Below, piece after piece: positions 2,545-64,000 of a DNA stretch of 64,000 nt (positions are counted from its first letter, which is position 1; each line of letters starts with the position of its first letter). Origin of the DNA: a phage. Made by a program: the position numbers and the translations under genes. The DNA lies in sequence record PZ357121.2; one strand, written 5' to 3'. The notes beneath the pieces are model-generated. The model saw nothing but the letters and a program-made list of their open reading frames with translations. It was not told the origin of the DNA and did no database searches.

Positions 2545-2668
2545 TTTAAATTCTCAATTCGAGATAATATTTAGTAGCCACGTTCTTCTGAATTTCACCT
2601 TCTTTCGACAAGTCTCTCAGTTGTAGGCTACCGCTTAGAAGAGTGTTCTCTTCATATAGTTATTTATA

Positions 2669-3001
2669 TCACTTATAAAGACACGGAATAGCTTTATAGT
2701 GGCATGTTACGAATTTCTGTTTAATTTCTTTAGGTTGTTTAAGACCTAAAGCCACAAATGGATGTGGAACATTTCGAATTTGTCCAACTGGTAGTGGAGT
2801 CAAATCACCGACTTCAACAAAACCTTCAGGAACATCAGGACCTACAGAATGAACTACACATAGTTCAGGAACTTCACCTTGAACACGTTTACCAATCACA
2901 AGTCCTGATTCTGTAACTTCTTCATCACCTGCTTGAGCGGGTTCAGAAACCAGAATGACATATTCACCAACAGCACGAATTGGGAGTTGTACTTCAGACA
3001 T
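2669..3001 (-). CDS. 31: gp31 co-chaperonin (GroES analogue for capsid folding)
   Basis: 110 aa, near-identical to T4 gp31 ([29 protein letters not shown]...). Confidence 0.95.
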
Positions 3002-3058
3002 CTTATTTCCTTGTTGTTTGACGATAGATTAATAATACCATACTATTCGTAAAGCATA

Positions 3059-3367
3059 TTACATAAGAAGCAAACGTTCTACAGGAGTACCATCAACCGA
3101 AATTACTTTATCAAGGCGGAAAGAACGCCACTGACCTAACTTGGTATCGAATGCTCGAACTGATTCACGAGGTTCATAACGAACTTCTGTTGCCGGATTG
3201 TTATTTTCATATTTGACTTCAAGTTCATCACGAGAAGCAAACATCGTGCGAACATCACCATTAGCCTTTTCAAATATAACACAATGAACGCCTACAGACA
3301 GAATAGTTTTAATACGTTCACGAAGAACCATAGTTTCTTGTTCAGTTAAAATCATATTATTCACCAC
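3059..3367 (-). CDS. hypothetical protein (31.1-like position)
   Basis: 102-aa ORF between gene 31 and cd, same strand. Confidence 0.55.
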   Translation of the reverse strand: MVNNMILTEQETMVLRERIKTILSVGVHCVIFEKANGDVRTMFASRDELEVKYENNNPATEVRYEPRESVRAFDTKLGQWRSFRLDKVISVDGTPVERLLLM

Positions 3368-3938
3368 AAAAGTTTCGGATTTGTTCCCAATTCAGAGAAC
3401 GAAGATTATTACGAGAGTACTGAATTACTTCAATACCGGCTTGTTTAAGAATGTCTGCCCAATTTTCAGGAGATCTGTCATATAACTCAGCGTATACAAC
3501 CTTTTTAATACCTGACTGCGTAATAGCTTTAGTGCAATCAGGACATGGAGAAAGCGTAGTATATAACGTAGCACCTTCAATAGAATTACCTTTACGAGCT
3601 GCAAATAAAATTGCATTCAATTCTGCATGGATTTCGTTATTAGCAGACCATGCACTATGAGCAGCCCGATGTTCTTTAGCCAAAACAAAATTATCTGCCC
3701 GTCCAAATGCTGTAGTACCTTCTTTATGACCAGCAACGATGACCGGGCTTGGTTTATTCTTCAACCAACCGTTTTCGGATGCATGTTCGCAACAGTTTGT
3801 ACCACCTGAAGGAGAGCCATTATAACCTGTAGAAATAATGCGTCCATCTTTTTCAATGACTGCGCCAACTTTCCATGAACAACATTTTGATTCTTGAGAA
3901 ATCAGATATGCAATCTGAAGGTATGTGCTAGCTTTCAT
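3357..3938 (-). CDS. cd: dCMP deaminase
   Basis: 193 aa with zinc-dependent cytidine/dCMP deaminase motifs HAE (HAELNAILFAARKG) and PCxxC (SPCPDCTKAI); T4 cd position. Confidence 0.9.
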   Translation of the reverse strand: MKASTYLQIAYLISQESKCCSWKVGAVIEKDGRIISTGYNGSPSGGTNCCEHASENGWLKNKPSPVIVAGHKEGTTAFGRADNFVLAKEHRAAHSAWSANNEIHAELNAILFAARKGNSIEGATLYTTLSPCPDCTKAITQSGIKKVVYAELYDRSPENWADILKQAGIEVIQYSRNNLRSLNWEQIRNFCGE

Positions 3939-4930
3939 TATTGAACCTTATTAATATAAGTTAACAGCTCTTTAGTTTGTTCCCAACTGATGCACGCATC
4001 GGTAATGGAAACGCCATAGGACATATTATCAGAAATTTTTTGATTTCCTTCATGTAGGAACGATTCTATCATAATTCCTTTGACCAAATCATTAGATGCT
4101 AAATTTTTACCAATACCAATTTGATTGCTATAATGCCCAGCAGCGTTTGCATGGCTACAGTCAACCATTACATAATGATTCAGACCTACTGCACTTGCTT
4201 TGTTAGAAGCTTCTTGAATATCAGAAGAATGATAGTTCGGGCCGTTAGTCCCACCACGCAATACGATATGCGTATTCTGATTACCTTCAGCTTCAACAAT
4301 GCCTACAGTACCATCGACGTCCATACCCATATACCGATGAGGCCAGGCGGCACTATACATCGCGTCTGTAGCTACTTTAATAGAACCATTGGTTGCGTTC
4401 TTGAAGCCTACGCACATCGGTAGACCTGAAGCAATTTCACGATGTGTCTGACTTTCAGTCGTACGGGCGCCAATAGCAACCCATGAGAAAATACCAGAAA
4501 GATACTTAATCGTGAATGGGTCTAATACTTCAGTTGCTAATGGAAGTCCCATACGTAGAAGTTTACGACACAATGTTCGTGCAACTATAAGACCGTGGTT
4601 CATATCAAAACTTCCGTCAAGATATGGATCATTTACAAGACCTTTCCAACCTACGGTAGTTCGAGGCTTTTCAAAATAAACGCGCATCACTAACAGAACA
4701 TTAGGAAGACGAGTTTGAAGTTCAGCCAGACGTTTGCCGTATTCAACAGCAGCAATAGGGTCATGAATTGAACAAGGACCTACAACAATAAGTTTGCGTG
4801 GGTCTTCACCATTCATAATCGAATTAACTTGTTCGCGATGAGAAGCCACTTGTGATGCGTAAGCTTCCGACAAAGGAATAATCTCAGCCAGTTCTTTTGG
4901 AGAAATAAGTTTTCCGACGACAGGTAACAT
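3938..4930 (-). CDS. 3-deoxy-D-arabino-heptulosonate-7-phosphate (DAHP) synthase, class I AroG/AroF-like
   Basis: 330 aa with strong AroG-like blocks: VVGPCSIHDP, MRVYFEKPRTTVGWKGLVNDP, WVAIGARTTESQTHRE, GFKN, IVLRGG; start has AAGGA RBS; not part of the T4 gene set. Confidence 0.85.
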   Translation of the reverse strand: MLPVVGKLISPKELAEIIPLSEAYASQVASHREQVNSIMNGEDPRKLIVVGPCSIHDPIAAVEYGKRLAELQTRLPNVLLVMRVYFEKPRTTVGWKGLVNDPYLDGSFDMNHGLIVARTLCRKLLRMGLPLATEVLDPFTIKYLSGIFSWVAIGARTTESQTHREIASGLPMCVGFKNATNGSIKVATDAMYSAAWPHRYMGMDVDGTVGIVEAEGNQNTHIVLRGGTNGPNYHSSDIQEASNKASAVGLNHYVMVDCSHANAAGHYSNQIGIGKNLASNDLVKGIMIESFLHEGNQKISDNMSYGVSITDACISWEQTKELLTYINKVQ

Positions 4931-5050
4931 AACAATCCTTAGGAGATATAAACAGATTCTGATTCAACAATACCTTTAACCGGATTAGACAGGCTAAGTT
5001 GGTAGTGCTCAGATTTATGACCATTCTCGATAGTAATGAGATAACTCTCA

Positions 5051-5287
5051 TTATAGTGTTCCGTATACTCGAGTTGCTTCAACAAGACCATCACTGCCTA
5101 ATTTAAGATTAGTAATTTGGTCACCATCTTTAGGATTAACGATTACGAGAAAAGAACGTGGAGATTCTTGAATAACTCGTAATGTTGCATCTTGGAAACG
5201 TTCAGACACTTTATTGATGAGTGCTTGAGCAAATTCTTTTACTTTAATCTGAAATTCGTGTACTGTAATTGGGTTTTCACTTAGCAT
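5051..5287 (-). CDS. hypothetical protein
   Basis: 78-aa ORF on the gene strand. Confidence 0.5.
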   Translation of the reverse strand: MLSENPITVHEFQIKVKEFAQALINKVSERFQDATLRVIQESPRSFLVIVNPKDGDQITNLKLGSDGLVEATRVYGTL

Positions 5288-5347
5288 TTCTATTTCCTCA
5301 TTTGTTGGTAGAGTTATAGTATCACAACTCCACCGTGTTGTAAACCA

Positions 5348-5623
5348 TTAAATTGCTTTGCATTCAATTTTTTGTGTACCGAAATTGATATCACATTGGA
5401 TAACTAAATCGCCGTCAAGATCAAATACCACTATGACGTGTGCAGACCCAGGGAGAAGAGTAATAGCAATAGAATCTACTTAGTCTGGGAGCAAAGCATT
5501 GAGTACATGAGTTAGTTGAGCATGAACTCTGAGTTCGGCTGCATTATCAAGCACTTCAAACATATTATTAGCAATAATCTGACTGAAGACTACCTTTACA
5601 ATTTCAGAATAAGTTGGGAACAT
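5348..5623 (-). pseudogene. small ORF interrupted by an in-frame TAA (possible pseudogene or read-through gene)
   Basis: ATG at 5623 with GAGGTAATT RBS, 46 codons to TAA at 5480-5482, then about 43 further sense codons in the same frame to a stop near 5348, ending right at an early-promoter gtaaac. Confidence 0.3.
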
Positions 5624-5630
5624 AATTACC

Positions 5631-5855
5631 TCAGTGTACAGTATTTACTTTAACTCGAACAACAAATCGCTCGGTCGGTTCACCTACAGGAACAAACTCT
5701 ACATGATATTCGCCTTTGTAACGAGTATTCAGATCATTACGAATTCCTGCGAGTTTGTTAATTAATGTAGGACTCATATTAAGTCCCACTAGTTTACGAA
5801 GCATTTTGTATGCTTCATCTTCGATTTCATGATGTTTATCGTACATAGTTTTCAT
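5631..5855 (-). CDS. hypothetical protein
   Basis: 74-aa ORF; its stop overlaps the RBS of the downstream small ORF. Confidence 0.5.
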   Translation of the reverse strand: MKTMYDKHHEIEDEAYKMLRKLVGLNMSPTLINKLAGIRNDLNTRYKGEYHVEFVPVGEPTERFVVRVKVNTVH

Positions 5856-6036
5856 TTAACCATTCAATTGCCTGGTCGACGTTATCAAATATACCGCCGT
5901 CTAAACGTTCTTCATGCTCATAGTCCAGCACATCAATACCGAACTGTCCATTTACTAAAGGCCGTACGCCGAAGAAAAAGCATTTACGTTTTTCAATTTC
6001 TTCGATTGTACGAAAAATCTTTTCGATATTATTCAT
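5836..6036 (-). CDS. hypothetical protein
   Basis: 66-aa ORF on the gene strand. Confidence 0.45.
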   Translation of the reverse strand: MNNIEKIFRTIEEIEKRKCFFFGVRPLVNGQFGIDVLDYEHEERLDGGIFDNVDQAIEWLNENYVR

Positions 6037-6763
6037 TAGTTTTCCATTTGCGGCCTAATTGCCAATCAGGATGGCTCAATCTAGGGTCGTTTTCATCTGT
6101 TGTAGAAGATTTCTTACCTGAAATATGGATAAGCCATTTTCTGGATTTAGCTGCTTTAGAATAGTTTTCTTTTGCCTCATCTGAACGAATCTTACCTTTA
6201 TTCGCTTTGGATATTTTATTACCCCATTCTATAATAGCTTCTTCGCTCATAAAATCTTTTACATTTTTACCGTACATAGGATTATTTTCGCCTTCAAATG
6301 AATTACCATTTTTAAGACGACTTTCTTTAGATTTAATCCCATGCCCTGGTAATTTCTTGCCTTTAATCCATGGCACGGCACCGTTTTTATATCTCTGTTT
6401 TTGTGTTTCTGAAATTTTTAATGAAGTTTCAGGACTGGAATTAACATTAATACGGTTTTCATTGATATAATCCCAGCCTCCTTCTCCGCCGGGTTTCAAA
6501 TTATAATTAGTATCCAATTTTATAAATTCTTTAGTTACTAATTCAGCTTCTAAATCATATGCTTCTTGTTTAGTTTCAAATATTTTTATGATTTCTTTAT
6601 TAAAAGAATCTTTACCATATTTTGATTCGGCATTTTTAAAAGCTGTACCGGAACCTAAATAAGAATCATTTTCTTTTAAGGTGGTCTTATGAACCCCTAT
6701 ATAAATTTTGTTGTTAACCAAACACGTGGTTTTATACACAGTGTATTTTTCCATTAGAATCAC
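6029..6763 (-). mobile_element. GIY-YIG homing endonuclease (Seg-like), free-standing
   Basis: N-terminal GIY-YIG module (KIYIGVHKT...YLGSG) followed by basic K/G-rich repeats typical of Seg DNA-binding tails; track start is GTG, probable true ATG at 6754 with GAGGTG RBS. Confidence 0.75.
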
Positions 6764-6772
6764 CTCTATAGA

Positions 6773-6780
6773 TATTTATA
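6773..6780 (-). promoter_or_regulatory. T4 late promoter (TATAAATA) for the GIY-YIG gene
   Basis: Plus tatttata = TATAAATA on minus, about 18 nt upstream of the ATG at 6754. Confidence 0.4.
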
Positions 6781-6801
6781 CTTAACTATGGAGATTTCTA
6801 A

Positions 6802-7888
<1,087 letters not shown>

Positions 7889-7889
<1 letters not shown>

Positions 7890-8191
7890 TATTTTATTCC
7901 TAAGAAAGCTTCAAGAATACGAATGTTGAGTTCGCGCCGGCCTTTATTAATTTCAGCAACGTTTTTATTAATTGACGTACTTCTAACGTTTGAAGAAATA
8001 AATTTAATCATATGACTTTTGAGTTGTTGCAAATCCAACCCTTTTTCTTTAGCAGCTTTACGAAGAGCTTTACCTGCTTCATCTAGTGCCTTTGCTGCAT
8101 CTTTGTCATAATTGACAAGTGACGACGTTCCACGGCAGATATCAATATACTCATCAGACCGTTTGATGTAATTCTCTAGTAATGTTTTCAT
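7889..8191 (-). CDS. hypothetical protein
   Basis: 100-aa ORF downstream of the promoter cassette at 8215-8249. Confidence 0.5.
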
Positions 8192-8214
8192 TTAGATTTC
8201 CTCAATTATCCATA

Positions 8215-8249
8215 GGAGCATTATACTCTGCTCCCGAGAGTTTGTAAAC
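8215..8249 (-). promoter_or_regulatory. early promoter with hairpin cassette
   Basis: Minus GTTTAC (plus 8244-8249), 18-nt spacer, TATAAT (plus 8220-8225); inverted repeat ggagca (8215-8220) / tgctcc (8229-8234) around the -10; near-identical copy at 37382-37417. Confidence 0.5.
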
Positions 8250-8473
8250 TATTTTACTAAAGATTCAATATACTCATGAAGAGCTTTAGTCGCTACTGCC
8301 CACTTATTCTGATATTCATTTTTCAGATTAGCACGAGACTGAACTAACAAGCGGTCATTAGTCGGAGGCAAAGATTCTAATCGTTGAATCTGGCGCCCAT
8401 AAATCATAGCCGCCATTTCAGATTCATAGATAAGCCCTTTAATGTATTCATGCTGTTCTTTAGTCATTGGCAT
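8249..8473 (-). CDS. hypothetical protein
   Basis: 74-aa ORF. Confidence 0.5.
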   Translation of the reverse strand: MPMTKEQHEYIKGLIYESEMAAMIYGRQIQRLESLPPTNDRLLVQSRANLKNEYQNKWAVATKALHEYIESLVK

Positions 8474-12466: not shown

Positions 12467-13456
12467 TTAAAGCTTACAAGCAGAACAATCTTCAGCTTTA
12501 GGTGTTTCTAATTCATAGTCATCTGTACCTGACCCATCACGAGTGTTATGATAGTAGAGGTTTTTTCCGCCAAAGTACCAGAAGTAAAGTAGATCGTCAA
12601 GCATTACTGACATTGGTACTTTACCTTTCTCAAATACTGCAGGGTCATAGTAAGTATTAGCAGAAGCAGATTGGCACACCCATTTCAACATGATAGCAAC
12701 TTGGGTCAAATAAGGTTTATTACCTTTCTTAGCAAGTTTCCACGCATAGTCGTAAAGACTCATATTATGTTCGATATTAGGAACAACCTGTCGGAAGTTG
12801 CCTTCTTTAGATTCTTTAATACTTACTGGACCACGCGGGGGCTCAATCCCGTTTGTAGAGTTTGATACTTGGCTGCTTGACTCACAAGGCATGAGTGCAG
12901 ACAACGTTGAGTTACGAATTCCGTGTTCTTTGAGTTCAGCTCGAAGTTCTTCCCAGTCACAGACGTAGTTCGGGGCTGCGATTTGGTCAATCTTTTTATT
13001 GTACCAGTCGATAGGTAATTCGCCTCTAGACCATTTAGTGTCTGAATAATACTCGCAACATCCTTTTTCTTTGGCGAGTTTGATTGAAGCTTTGATAAGG
13101 CCATATTGCAATCTCTCAAACAATTCATGAGTCAAATCGTTAGCGTCTTCATACGAAGCAAAGTTAGAAGCTAACCATGCAGCATAGTTCGTAACACCAA
13201 TACCGAGGTTTCGACGCTTTTTAGCTTTTAAAGCTTCTGGAACCGGATAATCTTGATAGTCTAACAGGTTATCAAGTGCACGTACTTGTACTTCAGCAAG
13301 TTCATTAATTTTATCTTGGTCTTGCCAATCAAATTTATCAAGAACAAAGGCAGAAAGAGTGCAGAGGCCCACTTCACCTTTGTTTTCAATAACTTGTATT
13401 GTTGTATACTCATCATCTTCGTAAAATTCATCTACAAATTCATAATCAATATTCAT
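12467..13456 (-). CDS. nrdA: ribonucleotide reductase large subunit, C-terminal piece
   Basis: 329 aa aligning to the C-terminal third of NrdA (GLCTLSAF..., SALMPCESSSQVSNSTNGIEPPRG, C-terminal CSACKL); has its own ATG. Confidence 0.85.
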   Translation of the reverse strand: MNIDYEFVDEFYEDDEYTTIQVIENKGEVGLCTLSAFVLDKFDWQDQDKINELAEVQVRALDNLLDYQDYPVPEALKAKKRRNLGIGVTNYAAWLASNFASYEDANDLTHELFERLQYGLIKASIKLAKEKGCCEYYSDTKWSRGELPIDWYNKKIDQIAAPNYVCDWEELRAELKEHGIRNSTLSALMPCESSSQVSNSTNGIEPPRGPVSIKESKEGNFRQVVPNIEHNMSLYDYAWKLAKKGNKPYLTQVAIMLKWVCQSASANTYYDPAVFEKGKVPMSVMLDDLLYFWYFGGKNLYYHNTRDGSGTDDYELETPKAEDCSACKL

Positions 13457-14156
13457 TTAATTCTTCTACCTTTTTTCGAGATATTCCTAGAGCTTTAGAT
13501 GCTCGATGTATTGATTGATATTCTATACCGTTTATTTTTACAGCAATTAAGTTATGGGGTTTTAATCCCTTTGGATGAGGTTTACTGACGTATTCTTGAT
13601 TATCGTTTTCAGAGATATTATCAAGCTTTCGACACTTAAAGCCTTTATGTTGAGACCTTTTGCCTTTGCATACGGCCGACATTGCCGAAGCATTGAGTGA
13701 ATGTAGTTCGCAAAATTCTCTTAGGCCTTTATGGATTTCTTCATGACCGTCTGGGAAAGTAAATACCCAAGTTGTTTGAAGTTTTTCTCTATGCTCGTCA
13801 GTTACCGGAATACCTTTGTTCCAAGCTGGTTTGCCTTTATTATTTTCAGATACAGAAATAGCCAATTTTCTTCTAAGCCACCCATGGCGTTTATTGGTGT
13901 TCTTTCGTTCAATATTATCTTCAGAATAAACACACATCATATTAGCGGCAAATACCAATTTATAATTATCTGGATATATCTTTACTAATAATTGATGAGC
14001 TATGTAATGCTCTTCGGGTGTCAAATCTACCAGGTTTTCCTTTGTATCAGAACCACCAATACACAGAGGTATAATATGGTGTGATTCGGTATAGCAATCT
14101 AATTTTCTGTTCTTAGCTTTAGAAATAAGGTTATTGTAAATTTTAGAATAATCCAT
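13446..14156 (-). mobile_element. HNH homing endonuclease (MobE-like) inserted within nrdA
   Basis: 236 aa with HNH core (ESHHIIPLCIGGSDTKENLV...EEHYIAHQ) plus repeated NUMOD-like DNA-binding modules; ATG at 14156. Confidence 0.8.
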
Positions 14157-14201
14157 AACTTTTCCTCTTGTTATGGATTATTTATTAACGGTCTGTGTAC
14201 T

Positions 14202-15635
14202 TTATTTGCTTTGAATTATACCGCCAGGATTAGCTTCATAAAACTTAGCTACATCCGACTTCTTAATTTTGATTAAACGGGTTTGTTGGCTATTCACATC
14301 ATTAGTTGGAATAGCGATTTCACAACATAAGTTACTCTGACGAATTGGAGCTTTTTCACGAATAAATGGAGTGTAGTTATTCGTGTTATCAACGAATTGT
14401 GGATAAATTCGAGCAGTGCCAGAACGTTCAGTCATGAACAATTCAAAGAGTTCTAGTGCTTTGATTCTTTTCTTTCTGATTGTCGGGTCTTTTTCAGCTT
14501 TCTCATAAAGCTCACGGAATTTATCTTGATCTTCAAAGAACGAGTAGTATAGTTCGCCTGACATTTCGTGAGGGCTAAATAAAGTAATATAATCATTTTT
14601 ACCAAGGCGTTCCATCATAAGGTCATTAATCTGAATTCCGTAGTCCATATGTCGAATACGGTTTTCATCCACGCCTTTGTTATTTTTCAGAACTAATAGG
14701 TTCTCTACTTCTAAGTGCCACATCGGATAATACGCTGTAGCAGCACCACCACGAATACCACCTTGAGAACAAGATTTTACTGCAGTTTGGAAATGTTTCC
14801 AGAATGGAATAACACCTGTATGTCGAACTTCACCCATACCGATCTTAGAACCTTCTGCACGAAGCATACCAACGTTGATACCGATACCAGCTCGTTTAGA
14901 AATATATTCAATAATTGATGCTGAAGTTTTGTTAATAGATTTTAACGAATCACCGGCTTCAATAACTACACAACTAGAGAACTGGCGAGTTGGAGTACGA
15001 GCACCTGCCATAATTGGAGTAGGCAATGAAACTTGATGAGTAGAAACGGCATCATAAAAACGAATAATATGTTTCAAACGGTCATGAGTTTCGTTTTGGT
15101 GTAAGGCCATGCCAATAGCCATGATAGCAAACTGGGGAGTTTCATAAATCTTCCCAGTTGTTTTATCTTTAACTAGATATTTTTCTTTAAGCTGCATAGC
15201 ACCAGCATAAGTCAGGTCAAAGTCTCGTTCATGTTTAATCTGTGAATCGAGATAAATGATTTCTTCTGCTGAATATTGAGACAACAGCTCAGGGTCATAT
15301 TTGCCTTCATTAACACAATAAGAAATATGGTCGATAAAAGCAGGCGGTTCAAACTGCCCATATACATCTTTACGAAGTGCAAACATTAGCCCTTTGGCGG
15401 CGACATACTGATAATCAGGTTCTTCGACAGAAATCGAGTTAGCTGCAACTTTAATACAAATCTTCTGGATATCTTTGGTGCTCATCCCGTCGACAAGATG
15501 GGTCTTAATTTCTTCGTACAATTCATATGGGTCAATTTGTGTTCCTTCACACTGCCAAGTTAAGACTTGAATAATTTTCTGTGCATCAAAATTTTGGGAT
15601 ACACCTGAATTTTTCACTACTTTAAAATTATACAT
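14202..15635 (-). CDS. nrdA: ribonucleotide reductase large subunit, N-terminal piece
   Basis: 477 aa aligning to the NrdA N-terminus through the active-site block SNLCCEIAIPT, then ending in its own stop. Confidence 0.85.
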   Translation of the reverse strand: MYNFKVVKNSGVSQNFDAQKIIQVLTWQCEGTQIDPYELYEEIKTHLVDGMSTKDIQKICIKVAANSISVEEPDYQYVAAKGLMFALRKDVYGQFEPPAFIDHISYCVNEGKYDPELLSQYSAEEIIYLDSQIKHERDFDLTYAGAMQLKEKYLVKDKTTGKIYETPQFAIMAIGMALHQNETHDRLKHIIRFYDAVSTHQVSLPTPIMAGARTPTRQFSSCVVIEAGDSLKSINKTSASIIEYISKRAGIGINVGMLRAEGSKIGMGEVRHTGVIPFWKHFQTAVKSCSQGGIRGGAATAYYPMWHLEVENLLVLKNNKGVDENRIRHMDYGIQINDLMMERLGKNDYITLFSPHEMSGELYYSFFEDQDKFRELYEKAEKDPTIRKKRIKALELFELFMTERSGTARIYPQFVDNTNNYTPFIREKAPIRQSNLCCEIAIPTNDVNSQQTRLIKIKKSDVAKFYEANPGGIIQSK

Positions 15636-39025: not shown

Positions 39026-39973
39026 TTATTCTGCAAATAATTCAGTAACATCTGAAATTACTTCATAACGGCAAGTACGCATCTTAGCATCACCATAGTC
39101 AACTGGGATGGATACAACATCACGTGGATGAACTTTAACTTTCACAACTTTATCTGAGCTTGAACCAAAGTGGCGAATATAAGATTTAGCACAAACGTGG
39201 AGACCGCGAGAACAGGTTTGAGTATCATCGTCATTAACTCGAGTACGAGGCATTGAAACAACTTTACCTGGGGAGTTATCAAATGTACCACTATAGCAGT
39301 CTAAATAGTCCTTACGAACTACTTTCCATGCATAGAAATACCCATCTTCAGTGATTTCAATATCATTTGCAACCAAGAAGTCGAATAAACGTTGTACAGC
39401 TTTTTCGCTTGGGTTTTCTAACAGGTTTTCAAGGAACGGCAGATAGAATTTAAAGTCTTCACCTTTTTCCATGGAATCAATAATACGATTAACCAGTCCT
39501 GAACGAATTTCTATACCTTGATAAAATAAACTACCACCTTCAATAGTAACATTACCATCAACAAACTTACTAATAGCTTTCTTGATGTTAATAAGTTCGA
39601 CAGCTTTACTAAGGTTTCCTGCGACCAGATTAGCTTTAATTTCTTCAAAATTTGCATGACTTGATGGGGTCGCATTGTATGCTACGCGTCCTTCAATAAT
39701 TGAAATAAATTTAGATGACGCGTTCCATACGATTTCAGGACGATGTCCGCCGATAATAGGTTCATCATTTTCTGGAACTTCTTCGATTACATAAGAGGCA
39801 TCGTTTGCTTCAGGGACAACGCCTTCTGCTTTAAAATTCTTAACAATCTTACGAAGAGTATCTGTTGAAATGTCGAAGTAATCGGCAATTTCTTTACGAG
39901 TCCATTTGCCTGATTCAACCAGGCCGTAAGCTTCTAACTGTTCTTCTTGGGACAAGCATTTGATATTGTACAT
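39026..39973 (-). CDS. rIIB: rIIB
   Basis: 315 aa, high similarity to T4 rIIB (MYNIKCL..., C-terminal half nearly identical). Confidence 0.9.
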   Translation of the reverse strand: MYNIKCLSQEEQLEAYGLVESGKWTRKEIADYFDISTDTLRKIVKNFKAEGVVPEANDASYVIEEVPENDEPIIGGHRPEIVWNASSKFISIIEGRVAYNATPSSHANFEEIKANLVAGNLSKAVELINIKKAISKFVDGNVTIEGGSLFYQGIEIRSGLVNRIIDSMEKGEDFKFYLPFLENLLENPSEKAVQRLFDFLVANDIEITEDGYFYAWKVVRKDYLDCYSGTFDNSPGKVVSMPRTRVNDDDTQTCSRGLHVCAKSYIRHFGSSSDKVVKVKVHPRDVVSIPVDYGDAKMRTCRYEVISDVTELFAE

Positions 39974-39982
39974 AATGTTTCC

Positions 39983-42196
39983 TTATTTGGCCGCTTCCAC
40001 GGCCTTCATGAATTTAACGATTTGAGCGACCTGTTCTTTAGAAAGAGTACCACGTCGTCCCATGTATTCTGACACAATATGATAATTGGTTTCGAATTCA
40101 ATAACCATTTTATCATCATTATCGTAAGCATTATCTTTAAGCTTATCGAAAATTTTAGCACACAATTCTAACTTCCTGTTCAGGTCTCTGTTTTCAGCAC
40201 CTGCGAATCGATTCCATCCCCAACGATTATTTACTGTTGAGAGTTTTGCAAAATCTTTACTGATTTCTTTGTTTTTAGAGCTAAAATACTTACTAAGGAA
40301 GTTAAGCTCTTCATTACGAGTAATATGATTCAAATAAGGCTGTGCTCTACGACTTGGTGATACATACTCATCATAATCCACTTTATCGATTAGCGTAATA
40401 TAGTCATTAATTGATTTTTCGAACAAGCATTCTACTTCACCAAGTTTACGAACTTTCTTAGCAATCTGTGGACGAACTACAGTGAACTCTTTAATACCTG
40501 ACAAATCAGCAATACGAGTCAAGAAATTGGAGTCATAGTTCAACCAACCTTTATCTGCGTCAAGACATTCAGCGTTAGAACGATTACGAACTATAGCATA
40601 ACCTTGGATTTCATCTGCTTCACTTGCCGGAATAAAGAGGTCTTCTGATACCCAAACATCGTTTTCATTCTTAAAGAATCGATGAGCACTTGGCGATTTA
40701 GGACGAGGCTCATTAGTCCGTTTCCTGACTTCAATCCATGGCTTAACGATTTGTAAAAGCTCTGAAGTCTTGTACATGTTAATGTTGTCGCCATCAAAGA
40801 TAACTTTAAGGCGTTCCAGAAGTTTCATTGCATCTTCGTCTGTAGGGTCAACGAATAGTACGCTTTTACCAAAACCGCGTGGAACTTTACCAGTTAATTT
40901 AACCTCGTCTTTAGACATTTCAATTGAATTAAGAGCTCGCATTAATGGAACGCGTCCCTTAACGTCGTCAATAACGATTTCAACATTTTTAATGTTAATG
41001 CCAATCAGGCTGTTAATTGAAATGGTCGATGATGAGCTACCACTTTCACGAATACGACGAAGACGAGGGGATTCAACGATATCATATACGACGCCAAGAT
41101 TACACCACTCAGGCCCCATTTTAAAACGTTTGTACAACTCAGAATAAGTTAGTTGTTCTTTAGAGTATTTCAGTGATTCAATATTAGACCCGGCCTTTTC
41201 CATGTATTTACGAGCTGTATAGCCAAGAGAATCAATTTCACGGAACACATGACGTGGGTATTTACAATCAATCCATTTCTTAGAATCTTCAGCAAATAAT
41301 TTTGCATCGATTTCTGCAACACGTTTATGGATATTTGCTACTGTACGTTTATCAAATGACAATGCTTCACGAGACGGGGCGACATCTAGTTCACCCATAG
41401 GGAATTTAATATAAGCTGTAGTGCATCGCGTCATCATCCATGTTTGTTCTTTAATAACACTTCCGATTGGATATACAATACCACCGTAAACGGCCATGAT
41501 ATTACCACGTTCACCCCATGGAGCTTCCTTGGCCAAATATACATCGTCAAATTCAGGAAAGTATTTAATATCTTTAACACCACGAACTTCTGCAATATCA
41601 CCTAGAGGACGCATAACATATGCAATTTCAGATGCGAACTTTTCAAAATCTTCTGGGTTAACAGGCACAACTACTTCAACGCCAGTCCGGTCATCAGGAC
41701 CCATCTTATCTACGAAGGTCGGCTTAATCTGTGGACCACTGTCATCTTGATAAATTACATAACCACGAACTTCACCGTTGTGATAAGACGTAAGGTTAAA
41801 CGTATCGGTATATGCTAGTGGAGCTTTAGAGCCTAGTCCGAATCCACCAATGAAATCATTACTCGATGTTTTAGTTGAAGCAAAATATGAGTTATAGATT
41901 CCTGGCTCTTCGTCATTACCTCGAATGGTGAAATCACTCATACCAGGACCAAAGTCTCGAACTACAAAACGTGGGTCTAAACGACCTGGAGCCTGAACAA
42001 TAAACTTATCAGTGCAACCATTAAGAATTTGTCCATCGATACAGTTTGTGATTAATTCACGTACACAAGCCAATTCTTTGTTTGTATAAAGGTCATTAGA
42101 CAAAATCTTATAAACTTTACTATTGCCTTGAATAGTAAATGCTGTGCTCTTACCGCCTGAACCAATAATCGTTTCTTTAGCCGTTTCAATAATCAT
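39983..42196 (-). CDS. rIIA: rIIA
   Basis: 737 aa, N-terminus MIIETAKETIIGSGGKSTAF as in T4 rIIA. Confidence 0.9.
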   Translation of the reverse strand: MIIETAKETIIGSGGKSTAFTIQGNSKVYKILSNDLYTNKELACVRELITNCIDGQILNGCTDKFIVQAPGRLDPRFVVRDFGPGMSDFTIRGNDEEPGIYNSYFASTKTSSNDFIGGFGLGSKAPLAYTDTFNLTSYHNGEVRGYVIYQDDSGPQIKPTFVDKMGPDDRTGVEVVVPVNPEDFEKFASEIAYVMRPLGDIAEVRGVKDIKYFPEFDDVYLAKEAPWGERGNIMAVYGGIVYPIGSVIKEQTWMMTRCTTAYIKFPMGELDVAPSREALSFDKRTVANIHKRVAEIDAKLFAEDSKKWIDCKYPRHVFREIDSLGYTARKYMEKAGSNIESLKYSKEQLTYSELYKRFKMGPEWCNLGVVYDIVESPRLRRIRESGSSSSTISINSLIGINIKNVEIVIDDVKGRVPLMRALNSIEMSKDEVKLTGKVPRGFGKSVLFVDPTDEDAMKLLERLKVIFDGDNINMYKTSELLQIVKPWIEVRKRTNEPRPKSPSAHRFFKNENDVWVSEDLFIPASEADEIQGYAIVRNRSNAECLDADKGWLNYDSNFLTRIADLSGIKEFTVVRPQIAKKVRKLGEVECLFEKSINDYITLIDKVDYDEYVSPSRRAQPYLNHITRNEELNFLSKYFSSKNKEISKDFAKLSTVNNRWGWNRFAGAENRDLNRKLELCAKIFDKLKDNAYDNDDKMVIEFETNYHIVSEYMGRRGTLSKEQVAQIVKFMKAVEAAK

Positions 42197-42208
42197 ATTT
42201 TTCTCTCA

Positions 42209-42409
42209 TCACAAGTTACGTTTAAAAATTTCTGCTACTTCAAGAAGTTCTTCTTTAGTAGCTGTATCGGTTTGTATTTTATATCGAATTTCCTTAAAGC
42301 GTTCTTTAAAGGCTTCGGCTGATTCGATATCAAAAAATCTTTGGATAAGCCGGAATTCCCGGAGCACTGCTTTATCAAAAAGTTCCAAGTCCACGTTATA
42401 TGTTCTCAT
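42209..42409 (-). CDS. hypothetical protein (rIIA.1 position)
   Basis: 66-aa ORF immediately upstream of rIIA. Confidence 0.55.
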   Translation of the reverse strand: MRTYNVDLELFDKAVLREFRLIQRFFDIESAEAFKERFKEIRYKIQTDTATKEELLEVAEIFKRNL

Positions 42410-42501
42410 AATATTCTCTTCAGTAGATTCCTAGGGCACTATTACTAAAGACCATATAATCTATCATCTTATGTGTAATAGTGCCTCAGGCGATTCAGGA
42501 T

Positions 42502-43602
42502 TTACGCTGTGAAGATTTTATCCCACATCGCAACAACTGCATCTCGATTATACTTCTTCCATACTGCTTCAGCACGTTTAACTCGAGCTTCGTATGTGTC
42601 AGTGAATTCTAATACAGCTTTTGTGTAAAGCGCAACTACTTCTTTCTTAGGAGTAGAGGAATCAATTTCTACACGCACAGTATCTGGGTCGTATTCGAAT
42701 GTCGCATGAGGATAATCCTTAAAAACTAACTGGATTACAGGGACACCTTTAGAGATGGCTTCAATAGAACTATTCTCTACCGTACCTGTGTCAGGACACG
42801 TATTAATAAGTGCTTTAGCTGTTTTAAGACGTTCCATGATTTCACTGTGTGGAGCATCAATAATAACAGGATACTTAGCCGGTGGTGCCCATTTGCTTGG
42901 ACAGTATCCTGCACCATTTTCGCCTAGTGCTTTAATAGCTTCAAGAGCAACATCAGTACGACGCATTTTAGTGTCATAACGTTGTGCACTAATAATCAGA
43001 TCAGTCGCCGGGAGAACTTCTGGCTTTTCAGTCAAACAAATAACCGGATAATCTTCGGCTTCAAACAACGGATTTGCTCGCCAATAATCATAATCAATTT
43101 TGTCAGTCAGACCTGAAGTCATATAACAATATTTGCGTTCAAATTCACGGAAGGCTTTAGTAGGAGCATAACTCTTACCACCATTCTTATGAATTTGAAT
43201 AGTTTGGTCCCAAATTTGAACAATGCCACGAGATACCGGTTCAAATGGTGTTGCCATAAAATTCTTATGAACTTTAGAGAGACCTACGTCTTTAATTGCC
43301 TGAACGGTTAGTTTAGTCGGTTCCATAGTAACAACAAAATCGTATTCATGGATGCCGGCTAGTTCAACAATCTTACGAGCCATAGTATAACTCATACCTA
43401 GACTGAATTTAGTCAGATGACCAACAGGATGGTGTGTAACTTTCCAGTCACCAAACGTGTCATTATCAAAGCCGATATAATCAATATCAGCACCGATGGA
43501 CACAAGATATTTCAACACATTTAAATGTACTGCTTCAAGGCCACCTTGTACACGGTCAGGATTAAATGGGACTGCACGAGATGGGATAAACATAACTTTC
43601 AT
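42502..43602 (-). CDS. GT-B fold glycosyltransferase, candidate DNA sugar-modification enzyme
   Basis: 366 aa; C-terminal nucleotide-sugar-binding block resembling the GT4 E-x7-E motif (TGTVENSSIEAISKGVPVIQ); not a T4 alpha-gt or beta-gt homologue by eye; lies between rIIA.1 and gene 39. Confidence 0.65.
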   Translation of the reverse strand: MKVMFIPSRAVPFNPDRVQGGLEAVHLNVLKYLVSIGADIDYIGFDNDTFGDWKVTHHPVGHLTKFSLGMSYTMARKIVELAGIHEYDFVVTMEPTKLTVQAIKDVGLSKVHKNFMATPFEPVSRGIVQIWDQTIQIHKNGGKSYAPTKAFREFERKYCYMTSGLTDKIDYDYWRANPLFEAEDYPVICLTEKPEVLPATDLIISAQRYDTKMRRTDVALEAIKALGENGAGYCPSKWAPPAKYPVIIDAPHSEIMERLKTAKALINTCPDTGTVENSSIEAISKGVPVIQLVFKDYPHATFEYDPDTVRVEIDSSTPKKEVVALYTKAVLEFTDTYEARVKRAEAVWKKYNRDAVVAMWDKIFTA

Positions 43603-43644
43603 AATTAAGCCTTATTAAAATTAAAATGAAGCTCCCGAAGGAGC

Positions 43645-45462
43645 TTAGGACATCCATTCTTTACGAAGTTCTGAATCATCACCCAACAACATTTCAAAGA
43701 GTTCTTTCCAATTTTCAGGAAGTTTAACTACGTCGTACACAGGATTCTGAATCATTTCACGATATTCTGACTTTTCAAGGGAGCCCAATCCCTTGATGTA
43801 TCGAATACTATGCTTAGGCAGTGTATCTTTAACTTCTTCATACTCAGCTACAGTATAAAACCATTTTTGAGTTTTGCCAATTTGTGCAATAATTACAGGC
43901 GTTTTAACAAAGCGAATACGTCCTTGTTCGAACAATTCGGGCCAATTACTAAAGAAAGCAAGCAAAGCCGGATAAATACTTCCAAGACCATCATGATCGG
44001 CATCGGTCATAATTGCAATATTACGATAGTTCGTATTCTCTGCCTTTTCACCAAGAATAAGACCTGTGATAGCACAGATATCAAAGAGCTCTTTGTTCTT
44101 CATCATATCAGCATATGACATACCCCAGCTATTCATCACCTTACCACGTAATGGGAATCCACCGTGTAGTTCACGGTCACGAACATCAATGAGATAACCA
44201 ATTGCCGAATCACCTTCTGTTAAAAACAATGTCGTATCTGCATCTTTACCACATTGGTTAGCTTTAATATGCTTATGAACCTTAGCTTTAGTTGCCTTTT
44301 TAGCTGCTTTAGTTTCTGCAGCCTTTTCTGCTGCCAATTTACGAGCTAATGCTGCTTCAACAATAGGCATAATCAAGGCTTCGTTTTTAAGAAGTGCCTG
44401 AGCAATTTTCTTAGCATCTAATTGGATATGATTACGAATATCGCCATACGTTGACGTTAAACGTTCTTTAGTCTGAGAATCAAAACGCATGTTGCTCATG
44501 TCTCTAATAAACATCAACATTGTGAGACATTCTTTAACACGAGCTTTAGTGACTTCAATACCCTTATATTTCTTTTTAATGCCGGGCAAAAGATGTTCGC
44601 AGATATCATCCATTACACATTCAACATGATGACCACCATTTTTAGTATGGATGTTATTCACATAAGTTAAATGACGGAAGCCATCTGGTGATGTTGTGAA
44701 TGCTATAGAGACTTTATCATTTTCTTGAATGATGTTATCTTCGCCAAATTGTTTAGCAAATCGTTTAAAATTACCATCAACCTTTTTACCATTAAATGTG
44801 AACTTGATATCAGGATAAACGACTGCCAATGTTTGAAGACGGTCTAAAGTAATATCTAAATAAATTTGAGATAAATTATGCTCTTCAAATGAAGAGAAAT
44901 CAGGAGTGAAGATTACTTTAGTGCCTTTACCTTTAGATTTCTTAGAAGACCACGATTTGTTTTCCATTCCGTTTGAACAGTTAACAGTGATTTCATTTTC
45001 GCCATCTGACGTTATGCCTGTAAACAACGTAGAGAAGATATTAGTTAAACTACTCCCGACGCCGTTCATACCACCAGTCTTGCGTTCAGAGTCATCACCA
45101 AAGTTACCGCCGGCCTTTGGAATAGTCCAGGCTGCTACAGGCCCAGGAATTTGTTCACCTGTTTGGTCGGTAACTAAACCTTGAGGAATACCACGTCCGT
45201 TATCTTCCACCGAAACTTGATTATTTTTAATTTGCACATCAATTTTATTTGCAAACTTAAATGATGTACGAATAGCTTCATCAACCGAGTTGTCAATAAT
45301 CTCATCGATTAATTTAACCAGACCAGGAACATATTCAACTTGTTGATATTTACCAAACAAAAAACGCTCGTGGGCTTCTTTGGCCGAAGAACCAATATAC
45401 ATGCCACTACGTTTCTTAATATGTTCTACATCTGACAATACCTTAATTTCATTTTTAATCAT
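43645..45462 (-). CDS. 39: DNA topoisomerase II large subunit, fused gp39 + gp60 equivalent
   Basis: 605 aa continuous ORF with GyrB-like ATPase and Toprim regions; the length corresponds to T4 gp39 plus gp60 in one polypeptide. Confidence 0.9.
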   Translation of the reverse strand: MIKNEIKVLSDVEHIKKRSGMYIGSSAKEAHERFLFGKYQQVEYVPGLVKLIDEIIDNSVDEAIRTSFKFANKIDVQIKNNQVSVEDNGRGIPQGLVTDQTGEQIPGPVAAWTIPKAGGNFGDDSERKTGGMNGVGSSLTNIFSTLFTGITSDGENEITVNCSNGMENKSWSSKKSKGKGTKVIFTPDFSSFEEHNLSQIYLDITLDRLQTLAVVYPDIKFTFNGKKVDGNFKRFAKQFGEDNIIQENDKVSIAFTTSPDGFRHLTYVNNIHTKNGGHHVECVMDDICEHLLPGIKKKYKGIEVTKARVKECLTMLMFIRDMSNMRFDSQTKERLTSTYGDIRNHIQLDAKKIAQALLKNEALIMPIVEAALARKLAAEKAAETKAAKKATKAKVHKHIKANQCGKDADTTLFLTEGDSAIGYLIDVRDRELHGGFPLRGKVMNSWGMSYADMMKNKELFDICAITGLILGEKAENTNYRNIAIMTDADHDGLGSIYPALLAFFSNWPELFEQGRIRFVKTPVIIAQIGKTQKWFYTVAEYEEVKDTLPKHSIRYIKGLGSLEKSEYREMIQNPVYDVVKLPENWKELFEMLLGDDSELRKEWMS

Positions 45463-56775: not shown

Positions 56776-57435
56776 TTAACCTCGATTCATAAATGCATTA
56801 AATATTTGGTCATCAACAGAAATTTCTAATTCGACTTCAATTGCTTCAGCCTTTTCTTCAGGTGGTAATTCGTATCCACACACTACAATTTTTTCATCGA
56901 TATCAAAATATACAGAAGCAATATGATTAATGTTATTTTCGGTTAAGTCTAAATCAACATCAACATCTTTTTGACCTACACTTAAAGGATAACTAATACG
57001 GGTTATTTTATTATCTTTAACAAAGAGTCCGCCAACATACTCTGTACTACGTTTGAAGTTTACACGTTTCCGAAATGAAAGATATGATGCATCTTTACCG
57101 TGAGCTCGGCTCATAGGACATAATGAATAGCTAGAATAAGAGATGTCAAATCCTACGCCTTCAATATGAGCCAACGTGTCATGAGTAAACCAATTATAAT
57201 CATATGCCAAATCCATTATATTGTAATATGTGAAAGGCACAGGATTAACATCATATGTTGTACCTTTAAAATCTGCCCAGGCAACGATTTCATTATCTTT
57301 AACAATTACAAAAATTACACCAATATGGTATCCGTTATTATTTTCATTCGGCGTTATATTATAACATTGTGCATTAGGAAATTTACCATATTTAAATGGT
57401 GCGTTTTTGTGCATGTAATAAATCATATTATTCAC
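56776..57435 (-). CDS. hypothetical protein
   Basis: 219-aa ORF (61.2-like position next to sp). Confidence 0.5.
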   Translation of the reverse strand: MNNMIYYMHKNAPFKYGKFPNAQCYNITPNENNNGYHIGVIFVIVKDNEIVAWADFKGTTYDVNPVPFTYYNIMDLAYDYNWFTHDTLAHIEGVGFDISYSSYSLCPMSRAHGKDASYLSFRKRVNFKRSTEYVGGLFVKDNKITRISYPLSVGQKDVDVDLDLTENNINHIASVYFDIDEKIVVCGYELPPEEKAEAIEVELEISVDDQIFNAFMNRG

Positions 57436-62820: not shown

Positions 62821-63369
62821 TTAACGAGCCCATTTGATAATTTCTGTAATCAAATTATTACGTTCGCTTGCATTAAATCCTATAACTTTGTTAGCACCAT
62901 CATGATTAAGTAATTGATACGTTTGGATTTCGTTATGAATTGCAAACTCTTCAAAATACGAAATGACTGTATTAAACCTGAATGAAGACAAAGTAATAAG
63001 GTCGTCTTCAAAACTTTCAGTCATTTCGTTACGTGTTAAAATAATTGTGAACACATCATGGTTTTGGCAAAGACGAACATAATCCTGTTCATAAACGTCA
63101 AGAACCGAGTCCGCATCTTGTCGAATACGTCCATAAACCCAGTTACTAATATATCCACGGTCTAACAGATAAATCTTAGTAGGGTCTAAATAATTCAACA
63201 TCGTTTCGAAACAGCCAACTTCATTTCGAGACTTAACATCGAAACGTCCATCAACTGTTCGTTTAGGGAAATCAATCTTTACATATCTTTCACTAATTTC
63301 CATTATGTCATTAATGAAAGTTGTTTTACCAGCATTATCCGGGCCATCTACTAAAATAATTTTAGCCAT
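62821..63369 (-). CDS. P-loop kinase-like protein (unknown substrate)
   Basis: 182 aa with Walker A at the N-terminus (IILVDGPDNAGKTTF) and a downstream LLDRGY block reminiscent of small nucleotide/sugar kinases; sits where T4 carries beta-gt. Confidence 0.55.
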   Translation of the reverse strand: MAKIILVDGPDNAGKTTFINDIMEISERYVKIDFPKRTVDGRFDVKSRNEVGCFETMLNYLDPTKIYLLDRGYISNWVYGRIRQDADSVLDVYEQDYVRLCQNHDVFTIILTRNEMTESFEDDLITLSSFRFNTVISYFEEFAIHNEIQTYQLLNHDGANKVIGFNASERNNLITEIIKWAR

Positions 63370-63370
63370 T

Positions 63371-64000
63371 TTATTCCTCGATTACGACATCTTCATATTT
63401 AGGTATATTATACGGCGAAGAAATTAAAGCATTAAAGTAGATGAACTCGCCAAGACCTGGATGGAATACTTCTTCAGGATTTTCGAAGTATTGAATCTTC
63501 GGACGTCCTTTAAGAATTTGATAGTACTCAGTTTTAGTTGGTTTAAAAATTCGAATCAGCGCTTCTTCAGGATACTTATTTCTGTCGAAGCTATTATTTG
63601 GATCGGTTATATAAAGCGGTTGACCTAATTGAATTGCACATTCAACCACTTGTTCAAAACGATAGCACGGGTCACTAATTCGAAATGGATGAAAAATACC
63701 ATCTAGATGAATAGGAGCCAAATCACCTACAAGACGCTGCATGATGGAAGGACGTATAACTTTCTGCGTTACGATAATCTTATTACCATCTGCACCTGCG
63801 TTAACCAGCACTTCTTTTTGACGTTCATTCAACACAGTAGTTTGAAGTGAACGATTAACAGACAACATGTCGGTTTTTAAGAATTCGTCAATATAAAAAC
63901 GTGGTTTATTAGGGTCTGCAGTGATATTGAAATTGAATTCTACGTCAAAATTGCCGTCATATCCAGTGATATCTGTGATTAGAAAATCACAATCATAATA
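63371..64000 (-). CDS. partial CDS of unknown function, 5' end beyond the window
   Basis: The reading frame stays open upstream of the track ATG (63868) to the window edge, so at least 209 codons; not recognisably beta-gt or dCMP hydroxymethylase by eye. Confidence 0.45.
   Translation of the reverse strand, partial: YYDCDFLITDITGYDGNFDVEFNFNITADPNKPRFYIDEFLKTDMLSVNRSLQTTVLNERQKEVLVNAGADGNKIIVTQKVIRPSIMQRLVGDLAPIHLDGIFHPFRISDPCYRFEQVVECAIQLGQPLYITDPNNSFDRNKYPEEALIRIFKPTKTEYYQILKGRPKIQYFENPEEVFHPGLGEFIYFNALISSPYNIPKYEDVVIEE

Follow-up and report, generated by a model that had tools for sequence, protein, structure and literature searches.

A DAHP synthase with a remodelled feedback-inhibition site in a Mosigvirus, and its association with U32-family and chorismate mutase genes in T4-like phages

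A 64,000-nt stretch of phage DNA (sequence record PZ357121.2), hereafter the window, was found to carry the gene for a synthase (DAHPS) of DAHP, the 7-phosphate of 3-deoxy-D-arabino-heptulosonate. From residue alignment and structure prediction, the protein appears to be a regulatory variant of class I-alpha DAHPS and not a typical member of the class. The presence of DAHPS in T4-like phages is ordinary and already in databases; new here are the clade-wide loss of the N-terminal extension and the occurrence of Ile, Lys and Pro at the classic feedback-resistance positions. The only T4-like phages found to have it belong to lineages with the 5-hydroxycytosine cluster and its U32-family gene. The best explanation, put forward tentatively and at a little under an even chance, is that a deregulated DAHPS raises prephenate for oxygen-independent cytosine hydroxylation.

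The enzyme and its inhibitor site

The open reading frame (ORF; 3938..4930, minus strand) runs uninterrupted from an ATG start and encodes 330 amino acids. The product matched Pfam DAHP_synth_1 (PF00793; E = 1e-74, 251 bits), the NCBIfam aroFGH equivalog TIGR00034 (427.1 bits; cut-off 173.2), NF009395 (455 bits; cut-off 343) and PHROG phrog_5045, 'phospho-2-dehydro-3-deoxyheptonate aldolase' (E = 1e-181). For residue mapping, the window protein was aligned to AroG, AroF and AroH of Escherichia coli MG1655. The metal ligands C53, H260, E289 and D311 (AroG Cys61, His268, Glu302 and Asp326) were present and invariant across phage homologues. The phosphoenolpyruvate (PEP) ligands R83, K88, G154, A155, R156, K177 and R225 (AroG R92, K97, G163, A164, R165, K186 and R234) were also present, and the KPRT motif that binds erythrose 4-phosphate (E4P) was intact (K88-P-R-T-T92). 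The metal residues, all seven PEP ligands and the KPRT residues were likewise kept in five other phage genera. An earlier note on this DNA had named this alignment beforehand as a check that could refute the enzyme; nothing was lost, and every catalytic and metal-binding residue was intact.

The AlphaFold model (predicted local distance difference test 91.5, predicted template modelling score 0.92) resembled E. coli AroG and NmeDAH7PS (1QR7, 8E0U, 4HSN; template modelling scores 0.94-0.96), and showed a (beta/alpha)8 barrel with the I-alpha beta6a/beta6b hairpin (strands 198-203 and 209-214). By family match, residues and model, the gene product is best taken as a class I-alpha DAHP synthase (TIGR00034, EC 2.5.1.54), predicted to be catalytically competent for the conversion of PEP and E4P to DAHP. 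A lytic T4-like phage thus does encode, between cd and pseT, a class I DAHP synthase of full length, as the earlier note had it. The ratio of nonsynonymous to synonymous substitution rates between genera was 0.13-0.25 (0.145 for the least saturated pair), and third codon positions had a phage-like G+C of 29%; these values mark the gene as under purifying selection and as an old, maintained phage resident.

The label 'AroG-type', which the protein had been given previously, had to be abandoned. AroG identity was rejected by the NCBIfam model NF006723 (364 bits against a cut-off of 568) and by Gly202, which stands where AroG has the Phe-type Ser211; the AroH model was also failed. The best solved relative was the Tyr-sensitive AroF (352 vs 310 bits), and two AroF-type residues were found, Pro138 (AroG M147, AroF Pro148) and Gly202 (AroG S211, AroF Gly212). 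AroF identity was rejected as well, since Gln152 is replaced by Lys142 and Ser181 by Pro171, and there is no equivalent of Asn8, which belongs with Ile11 to the N-terminal part of the Tyr site; Pro138 and Gly202 are retained. Judged by these residues, the window protein looks AroF-derived but is not an AroF. It is 51%, 47% and 44% identical to E. coli AroF (PDB 6AGM), AroG and AroH, respectively, and has in common with them the fold, length class, predicted reaction chemistry, beta6a/6b hairpin and metal, PEP and E4P residues, while Pro148 and Gly212 are shared with AroF. It differs in having about 9 fewer N-terminal residues, no equivalents of AroG D6 and D7, and small gaps in two loops. The phage DAHPS grouped as one separate, monophyletic clade (bootstrap 95/100) when 129 sequences were placed in a neighbour-joining tree. 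No close cellular donor lineage was identifiable, the best cellular matches being 52-54% identical and taxonomically scattered.

The feedback-inhibition sites were the most informative of the checks for which the earlier note had called, and they proved to be systematically remodelled. In each of the 26 proteins of the phage clade, 8-12 residues (10 in the window protein) precede the site aligned with AroG P19, compared with at least 16 in cellular homologues, so that the N-terminal segment contributing to the inhibitor site is missing; the model has coil at residues 1-10 and lacks a beta0 strand. The positions of AroG P150 (AroF P151), Q151 and S180 hold Ile, Lys and Pro in 24 of these proteins, with IRP and PKP in one each, whereas the nearest cellular homologues (about 95) all retain P(V), Q and S(T). 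The AroG substitution P150L gives complete Phe resistance and S180F gives resistance, and Q151 (AroF Q152) and S180 (AroF S181) contact the main chain of the inhibitor (PMC9529685). The phage DAHPS is thus probably insensitive to feedback by Phe, Tyr and Trp, as far as can be judged from aligned residues.

Distribution with U32 and chorismate mutase genes

A tblastn search for DAHPS returned 213 phage records, mostly annotated as DAHP synthase. About 140 of these were Mosigvirus, at 97-99.7% amino-acid identity to the window protein; copies at 58-78% identity came from Kanagawavirus, Marfavirus, Winklervirus, Bragavirus, EcS1 and phages of Erwinia, Providencia and Morganella. By host genus, records were from phages of Escherichia (125), Klebsiella (25), Shigella (12), Proteus (7), Serratia (6), Enterobacter (4) and Edwardsiella (3). 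Four Acinetobacter phage records (about 47% identity) belong to a different lineage, and no Tequatrovirus was among the matches listed. An independent phage acquisition was seen in Aeromonas phage HJ05, which has a distant homologue (387 amino acids, 38% identity, long N-terminus; locus 4899-6546) adjoining an Acb2/Tad1-family anti-CBASS/Thoeris sponge gene and a methyltransferase gene.

Phage DAHPS is already known as an annotation, with its own PHROG (5045), some 200 deposited genomes and mentions in print: the phiC120 genome paper lists a DAHPS domain in ORF64 (PMC8022965), and the copy of the Klebsiella phage KLB31 (Kanagawavirus) was called an aromatic-amino-acid auxiliary metabolic gene in 2025 (PMC11845039). 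These reports concern the same gene family and end at annotation or at that label; neither the loss of the regulatory site nor an association with U32 and chorismate mutase was mentioned in those found. In the literature searched, no experimental work on phage DAHPS was found, nor any link of it to U32 or prephenate, although earlier publication of the idea is possible.

The U32 protein is a homologue of gp50 of phage RB69. By RB69 synteny, its gene is expected about 2.5 kb beyond the end of the window, and near-identical Mosigvirus genomes (SQ17, G53, ESCO47, EP32a, JS09, ST0) have both U32 and DAHPS. The gp50 homologue scored 42.2 bits against Pfam U32 (cut-off 22.4), matched a profile of E. 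coli UbiU, UbiV, RlhA and TrhP in hhalign (88% probability, E = 3e-6) and was detected by a hidden Markov model (HMM) made solely from E. coli U32 proteins. Pairwise BLAST gave no similarity between phage and cellular U32, the phage proteins being very divergent. In the hhalign alignment (88% probability), C206, C212 and C236 of gp50 fall in the Cys-motif region of UbiU and are putative Fe-S ligands; an invariant C-terminal CX4CX3CX2C was found in gp50 homologues. Amino-acid identity of gp50 homologues between genera (RB69, F48 and others) is 83-89%, compared with 58-78% for DAHPS, which implies very strong constraint on gp50. The distribution of U32 in phage records nearly mirrors that of DAHPS (phages of Escherichia 137, Klebsiella 26, Shigella 14, Serratia 7, Proteus 7, Enterobacter 4 and Edwardsiella 3), and Acinetobacter phages were not among the genera listed.

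In most lineages a chorismate mutase of 79-124 amino acids is encoded between U32 and the ThyA-type synthase of 5-hydroxydeoxycytidine monophosphate (5hodCMP), with frames overlapping those on either side. It matched Pfam CM_2 at 40.9 and 39.5 bits (cut-off 27), and its best solved match was 1ybz (E = 3.5e-8). The slot is so filled in Kanagawa-, Marfa-, Winkler-, Braga-, Teguna- and Mosugukvirus, in EcS1, and in phages of Erwinia, Providencia, Morganella and Shewanella; in total, chorismate mutase is co-encoded in at least 8 lineages other than Mosigvirus. The Bragavirus protein (Proteus phage phiP4-3, L015:5030-5404) has an N-terminal extension of about 45 amino acids; it has diverged too far to be picked up by tblastn with the Kanagawavirus protein, and was found only by a custom HMM. 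The corresponding slot of Mosigvirus, between U32 and the 5hodCMP synthase and a short way past the end of the window, holds an unrelated 79-amino-acid protein (RB69 gp49, L010:6257-6496). As a hidden chorismate mutase gp49 was rejected, since neither Pfam nor PDB nor a custom HMM gave a signal; it could be a functional analogue of, or replacement for, chorismate mutase. Gene content by lineage was as follows.

Kanagawa-, Marfa-, Winkler- and Bragavirus, EcS1, Erwinia phages, Providencia/Morganella phages: U32, DAHPS and chorismate mutase present
Mosigvirus (most): U32 and DAHPS present, chorismate mutase absent
RB69: U32 present, DAHPS and chorismate mutase absent
Tegunavirus phiR1-RT and Mosugukvirus PM2 (Pectobacterium): U32 and chorismate mutase present, DAHPS absent
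Acinetobacter arabinosylating phages: U32, DAHPS and chorismate mutase absent

The shikimate-pathway genes follow U32 and not arabinosylation, and DAHPS is nested within the U32-bearing phages. Since RB69, Tegunavirus and Mosugukvirus are without it, DAHPS is an accessory gene.

Gene neighbourhood

The window phage is a Mosigvirus, with 96-98% nucleotide identity to PNJ-9, APCEc01 and JK45. The T4-like nucleotide-metabolism block around DAHPS includes rnlA, nrdB, nrdA and td, and the synteny pseT-DAHPS-cd is kept in Mosig-, Kanagawa-, Marfa-, Winkler- and Bragavirus. Features of the window were as follows.

3357..3938, minus strand: cd (dCMP deaminase), with a start codon overlapping the DAHPS stop codon (TAATG)
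3938..4930, minus strand: DAHP synthase gene of class I-alpha, with an intact catalytic set, no N-terminal regulatory extension and a remodelled allosteric pocket (I141, K142, P171)
4936..4940, minus strand: Shine-Dalgarno sequence AAGGA read from the sequence, 5 nt upstream of the ATG at 4930
5051..5287, minus strand: cd.2-like ORF (DUF7320; compare the RB69 annotation), upstream of DAHPS in a common transcription unit
5316..5344, minus strand: sigma-70-like match TTTACA-17-TACTAT, a candidate early promoter upstream of cd.2, DAHPS and cd (weak evidence)
6802..7701, minus strand: pseT polynucleotide kinase/phosphatase, the far boundary of the conserved insertion interval
42502..43602, minus strand: RB69 gp3-like DNA arabinosyltransferase 2, between rIIA and topoisomerase gp39 (PMC13390438, PMC13326640)
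62821..63868, minus strand: start of the 5-hydroxycytosine/arabinosyl cluster, with a thymidylate-kinase-like ORF (62821..63369) and the start of arabinosyltransferase 1 (63371..63868)

The TAATG overlap implies translational coupling of DAHPS and cd. Sigma-70-like matches in 2600..8300 numbered 17, compared with 18.7 in shuffled sequence, giving no enrichment and no dedicated promoter, and neither a MotA box nor a late-promoter motif was seen upstream of DAHPS. The 120 nt between DAHPS and the cd.2-like gene (4931..5050) are without a convincing ORF, promoter or terminator motif; the corresponding gap spans about 10 nt in Kanagawavirus.

A GIY-YIG/NUMOD3 seg-like homing endonuclease gene (6029..6763, minus strand) lies between the cd.x genes and pseT. 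It was found in the window phage, PNJ-9 and WFbE185; most Mosigvirus genomes lack it and cover only 83% of the 3000..8000 query. The gene for the large subunit of ribonucleotide reductase, nrdA, is in pieces (12467..15635, minus strand): 14202..15635 encodes the ATP-cone, the all-alpha domain and barrel positions 1-221, and 12467..13456 encodes barrel positions 219-523. They are separated by an ORF (13446..14156) with an I-HmuI NUMOD-like endonuclease domain, as if a homing endonuclease had split nrdA. The ORF at 56776..57435 (minus strand) matched Pfam AdfA (anti-DarT factor A; E = 1e-120) and is thus an anti-defence gene.

Prephenate, rival explanations and known systems

In E. coli, the DAHPS step and the chorismate-mutase steps of PheA and TyrA are repressed or inhibited by aromatic amino acids, and the aroB, aroD, aroE, aroA and aroC steps are constitutive. 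The controlled steps toward prephenate, DAHPS and chorismate mutase, are exactly those encoded by these phages. Prephenate is needed by RlhA (which makes 5-hydroxycytidine 2501 in 23S rRNA), by TrhP and by UbiU/UbiV (PMC5727448, PMC6599085, PMC10990095), and for UbiU/UbiV it is the oxygen donor under anoxia (PMC10990095). The 5hodCMP synthase known from phages needs both flavin and O2 (PMC13326640). By rough estimate, about 64,000 cytosines would be present in a genome of about 170 kb with the window's GC of 37.6%, and a burst would hence require millions of hydroxylations and an equal supply of oxygen donor.

On these grounds the following mechanism is proposed. DAHPS would be expressed early with the prereplicative nucleotide-metabolism genes, translationally coupled to cd. 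Host DAHPS isozymes are repressed and inhibited in amino-acid-rich conditions; an ancestrally tyrosine-type DAHPS free of its allosteric site would open host shikimate entry despite an amino-acid-rich medium. Chorismate and then prephenate would rise, the chorismate mutase supplying the second controlled step. U32 (gp50) would use prephenate as oxygen donor for O2-independent hydroxylation of cytosine C5, so as to replace or supplement, in anoxic gut hosts, the 5hodCMP synthase that depends on O2 and flavin, and the benefit would be mainly under anoxic, amino-acid-rich gut conditions. Taken together as a phage-encoded O2-independent route to 5-hydroxycytosine, DAHPS, chorismate mutase and gp50 make a possible system, held with slightly less assurance than the prephenate explanation as a whole; it would allow gut phages to make arabinosyl-5-hydroxycytosine DNA under anoxia, in which their O2-dependent synthase cannot function. 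We infer the feedback insensitivity, the role of U32 as cytosine hydroxylase and prephenate as the reason for DAHPS.

Several points weigh against the prephenate explanation. The U32 cluster lies about 100 kb away from DAHPS, whose coupling is with cd and not with U32. In RB69, Tegunavirus phiR1-RT and Mosugukvirus PM2, U32 is present without DAHPS, and RB69 fully modifies its DNA aerobically. Chorismate mutase was not detected in Mosigvirus, the genus of the window phage, no Mosigvirus record having matched. No U32 or chorismate mutase gene was found near the DAHPS of HJ05 (11 kb examined) or of gut contig MT835504; the latter may not be a phage, and both acquisitions are uninformative as a test of the DAHPS-U32 link. 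The co-occurrence of DAHPS and U32 could be shared ancestry in one Tevenvirinae super-clade, with few independent events, and the strict conservation of Ile, Lys and Pro might mean that the site was re-tuned to another effector and not lost. In vitro hydroxylation has been shown for no U32 protein (PMC10990095). The RB69 authors guessed gp50 to be a 'sugar or heterocycle reductase', and the words prephenate, U32 and DAHP are absent from their paper (PMC13326640).

Nearly as likely as the prephenate explanation, if somewhat doubtful in its own right, is that DAHPS, whether deregulated or not, is a generic auxiliary gene which sustains Phe, Tyr and Trp synthesis for the large burst of phage protein after shut-off of host transcription, its co-occurrence with U32 and chorismate mutase reflecting nothing more than common descent. 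This has already been offered in print for KLB31 (PMC11845039), and it fits an enzyme that governs carbon entry into the pathway, lies outside the modification cluster, is dispensed with by RB69, Tegunavirus and Mosugukvirus, and was gained by HJ05 and gut contigs with no U32 or chorismate mutase nearby. However, Tequatrovirus has the same protein demand and the same hosts and is not among the DAHPS matches listed, aromatic amino acids are usually available in gut hosts, and the chorismate mutase is wedged, frames overlapping, between U32 and the cytosine hydroxylase homologue and not with amino-acid genes. That the chorismate serves folate (through para-aminobenzoate, for thymidylate-synthase-family enzymes and the baseplate) or quinones is improbable. 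T4-type phages are folate-hungry, and the gene lies in the nucleotide block near td, coupled to cd; yet the folate-dependent hydroxymethylcytosine phages (Tequatrovirus) were not seen to carry DAHPS, and the co-encoded chorismate mutase draws chorismate away from para-aminobenzoate. For quinones, anaerobic ubiquinone synthesis through UbiU/UbiV needs prephenate (PMC10990095); against folate, the cytosine-modifying ThyA homologue of the DAHPS-bearing clade switched from folate to flavin chemistry (PMC13326640).

The remaining explanations involve sugar phosphates. Mosigvirus DNA carries arabosylated 5-hydroxycytosine (PMC13390438, PMC13326640), and the published pathway runs from ribulose 5-phosphate (Ru5P) to arabinose 5-phosphate (A5P) by the gp55 isomerase, followed by a kinase/uridylyltransferase resembling AfhE, a phosphatase resembling AfhF and two DNA arabinosyltransferases (PMC13326640). 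DAHPS could be mainly an irreversible sink for E4P and PEP that pulls the non-oxidative pentose-phosphate pathway toward the pentose phosphates needed for nucleotides and toward A5P, or could offset an E4P shortage caused by the phage's drain on Ru5P. The phage does divert Ru5P to A5P (PMC13326640), in most lineages DAHPS and the arabinosyl pathway occur together, and some 64,000 cytosines per genome with 1-2 arabinoses each make an estimated pentose demand that is substantial. Such redirection would waste PEP, however, and would leave the loss of the allosteric site and the chorismate mutase unexplained; the Acinetobacter phages with tri-arabinosylated DNA are without DAHPS, and this explanation is less probable still than folate or quinone supply. 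The earlier note had further suggested that the enzyme acts on A5P, like 3-deoxy-D-manno-octulosonate 8-phosphate (KDO8P) synthase, to give a sugar acid for DNA glycosyltransferases, and this is very improbable. The phage makes large amounts of A5P, and the E. coli DAHPS(Phe) was reportedly found by Sheflyan and colleagues in 1998 to accept A5P poorly as an alternative substrate. In KDO8P synthases the A5P-type motif is KANRS in place of KPRT. Membership of the KDO8P synthase (KdsA) family was rejected: KPRTT and the DAHPS-specific residues are kept, no KDO8P synthase model was among the NCBIfam matches at E<=0.01, and the 50 PDB fold matches listed were all DAHPS. The only DNA sugar found is arabinose, and the published arabinosyl pathway is complete without DAHPS, so a sugar-acid enzyme is not needed. 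A strict linkage of DAHPS to the arabinose precursor was likewise rejected, as tblastn with the RB69 A5P isomerase returned 276 records, 57 of them from Acinetobacter phages without DAHPS, while in Marfavirus F48 DAHPS is present and the isomerase absent. The suggested tie to DNA hypermodification itself seems right, but probably by way of the hydroxylation step, with U32, chorismate mutase and prephenate, rather than the sugar.

The cluster of Klebsiella phage F48 (record 39741-45408) contains a candidate AfhE-like gene (gp091, by position only) and genes for a phosphatase resembling AfhF, for thymidylate kinase, U32 and chorismate mutase, and for a ThyA homologue and a glycosyltransferase. 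Marfavirus may rely on host KdsD/GutQ or on a different sugar.

If the feedback insensitivity is real, this is a naturally evolved feedback-free class I-alpha DAHPS, of a kind that metabolic engineers make by mutagenesis; it would be available to them ready-made, and would be a case study of viruses stripping regulation from host enzymes. If the prephenate explanation holds, it would answer what the conserved U32 'peptidase' does in the cluster described in the 2025-2026 work on arabinosyl-5-hydroxycytosine phages, giving gp50 its first assigned role, and would explain how 5-hydroxycytosine is made in the gut without oxygen, given an O2-using synthase. It would also be the first case in which a virus encodes the use of prephenate as oxygen donor. 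Since cocktails for therapy against E. coli and Klebsiella include Mosigvirus and Marfavirus phages, oxygen or aromatic-amino-acid conditions that alter DNA protection could affect efficacy. The association of DAHPS, U32 and chorismate mutase leads to a specific, testable hypothesis, unpublished as far as the literature was searched.

Among known systems, the CmoA-CmoX 5-carboxymethylcytosine system (Synechococcus phage S-B43) is also a phage cytosine modification and uses prephenate stoichiometrically, but it does so by carboxymethyl transfer from carboxy-S-adenosylmethionine, and chorismate and DAHP are not mentioned (PMC12783734). Its authors flagged prephenate availability as open (PMC12783734), and the prephenate explanation bears on that question of supply. 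The cellular RlhA, TrhP and UbiU/UbiV systems resemble the phage one in having a U32-family protein, which in the phages has conserved Cys clusters, and 5-hydroxycytosine in phage DNA is the same chemistry as the RlhA product. The phage U32 gene stands beside chorismate mutase and a homologue of a cytosine-C5 hydroxylase, and its product, a putative hydroxylase, is very divergent, whereas the cellular systems use housekeeping shikimate enzymes; we know of no cellular U32 system with its own DAHPS or chorismate mutase. The closest parallel to the remodelled enzyme lies in engineered or selected resistant alleles (AroG P150L, D146N and S180F; Corynebacterium glutamicum AroF P155L/I and E154N/S), in which changes at the same pocket positions keep activity and abolish inhibition (PMC9529685). 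In the phage enzymes resistance is predicted; several natural changes occur there together with an N-terminal truncation, and they are fixed throughout a viral clade.

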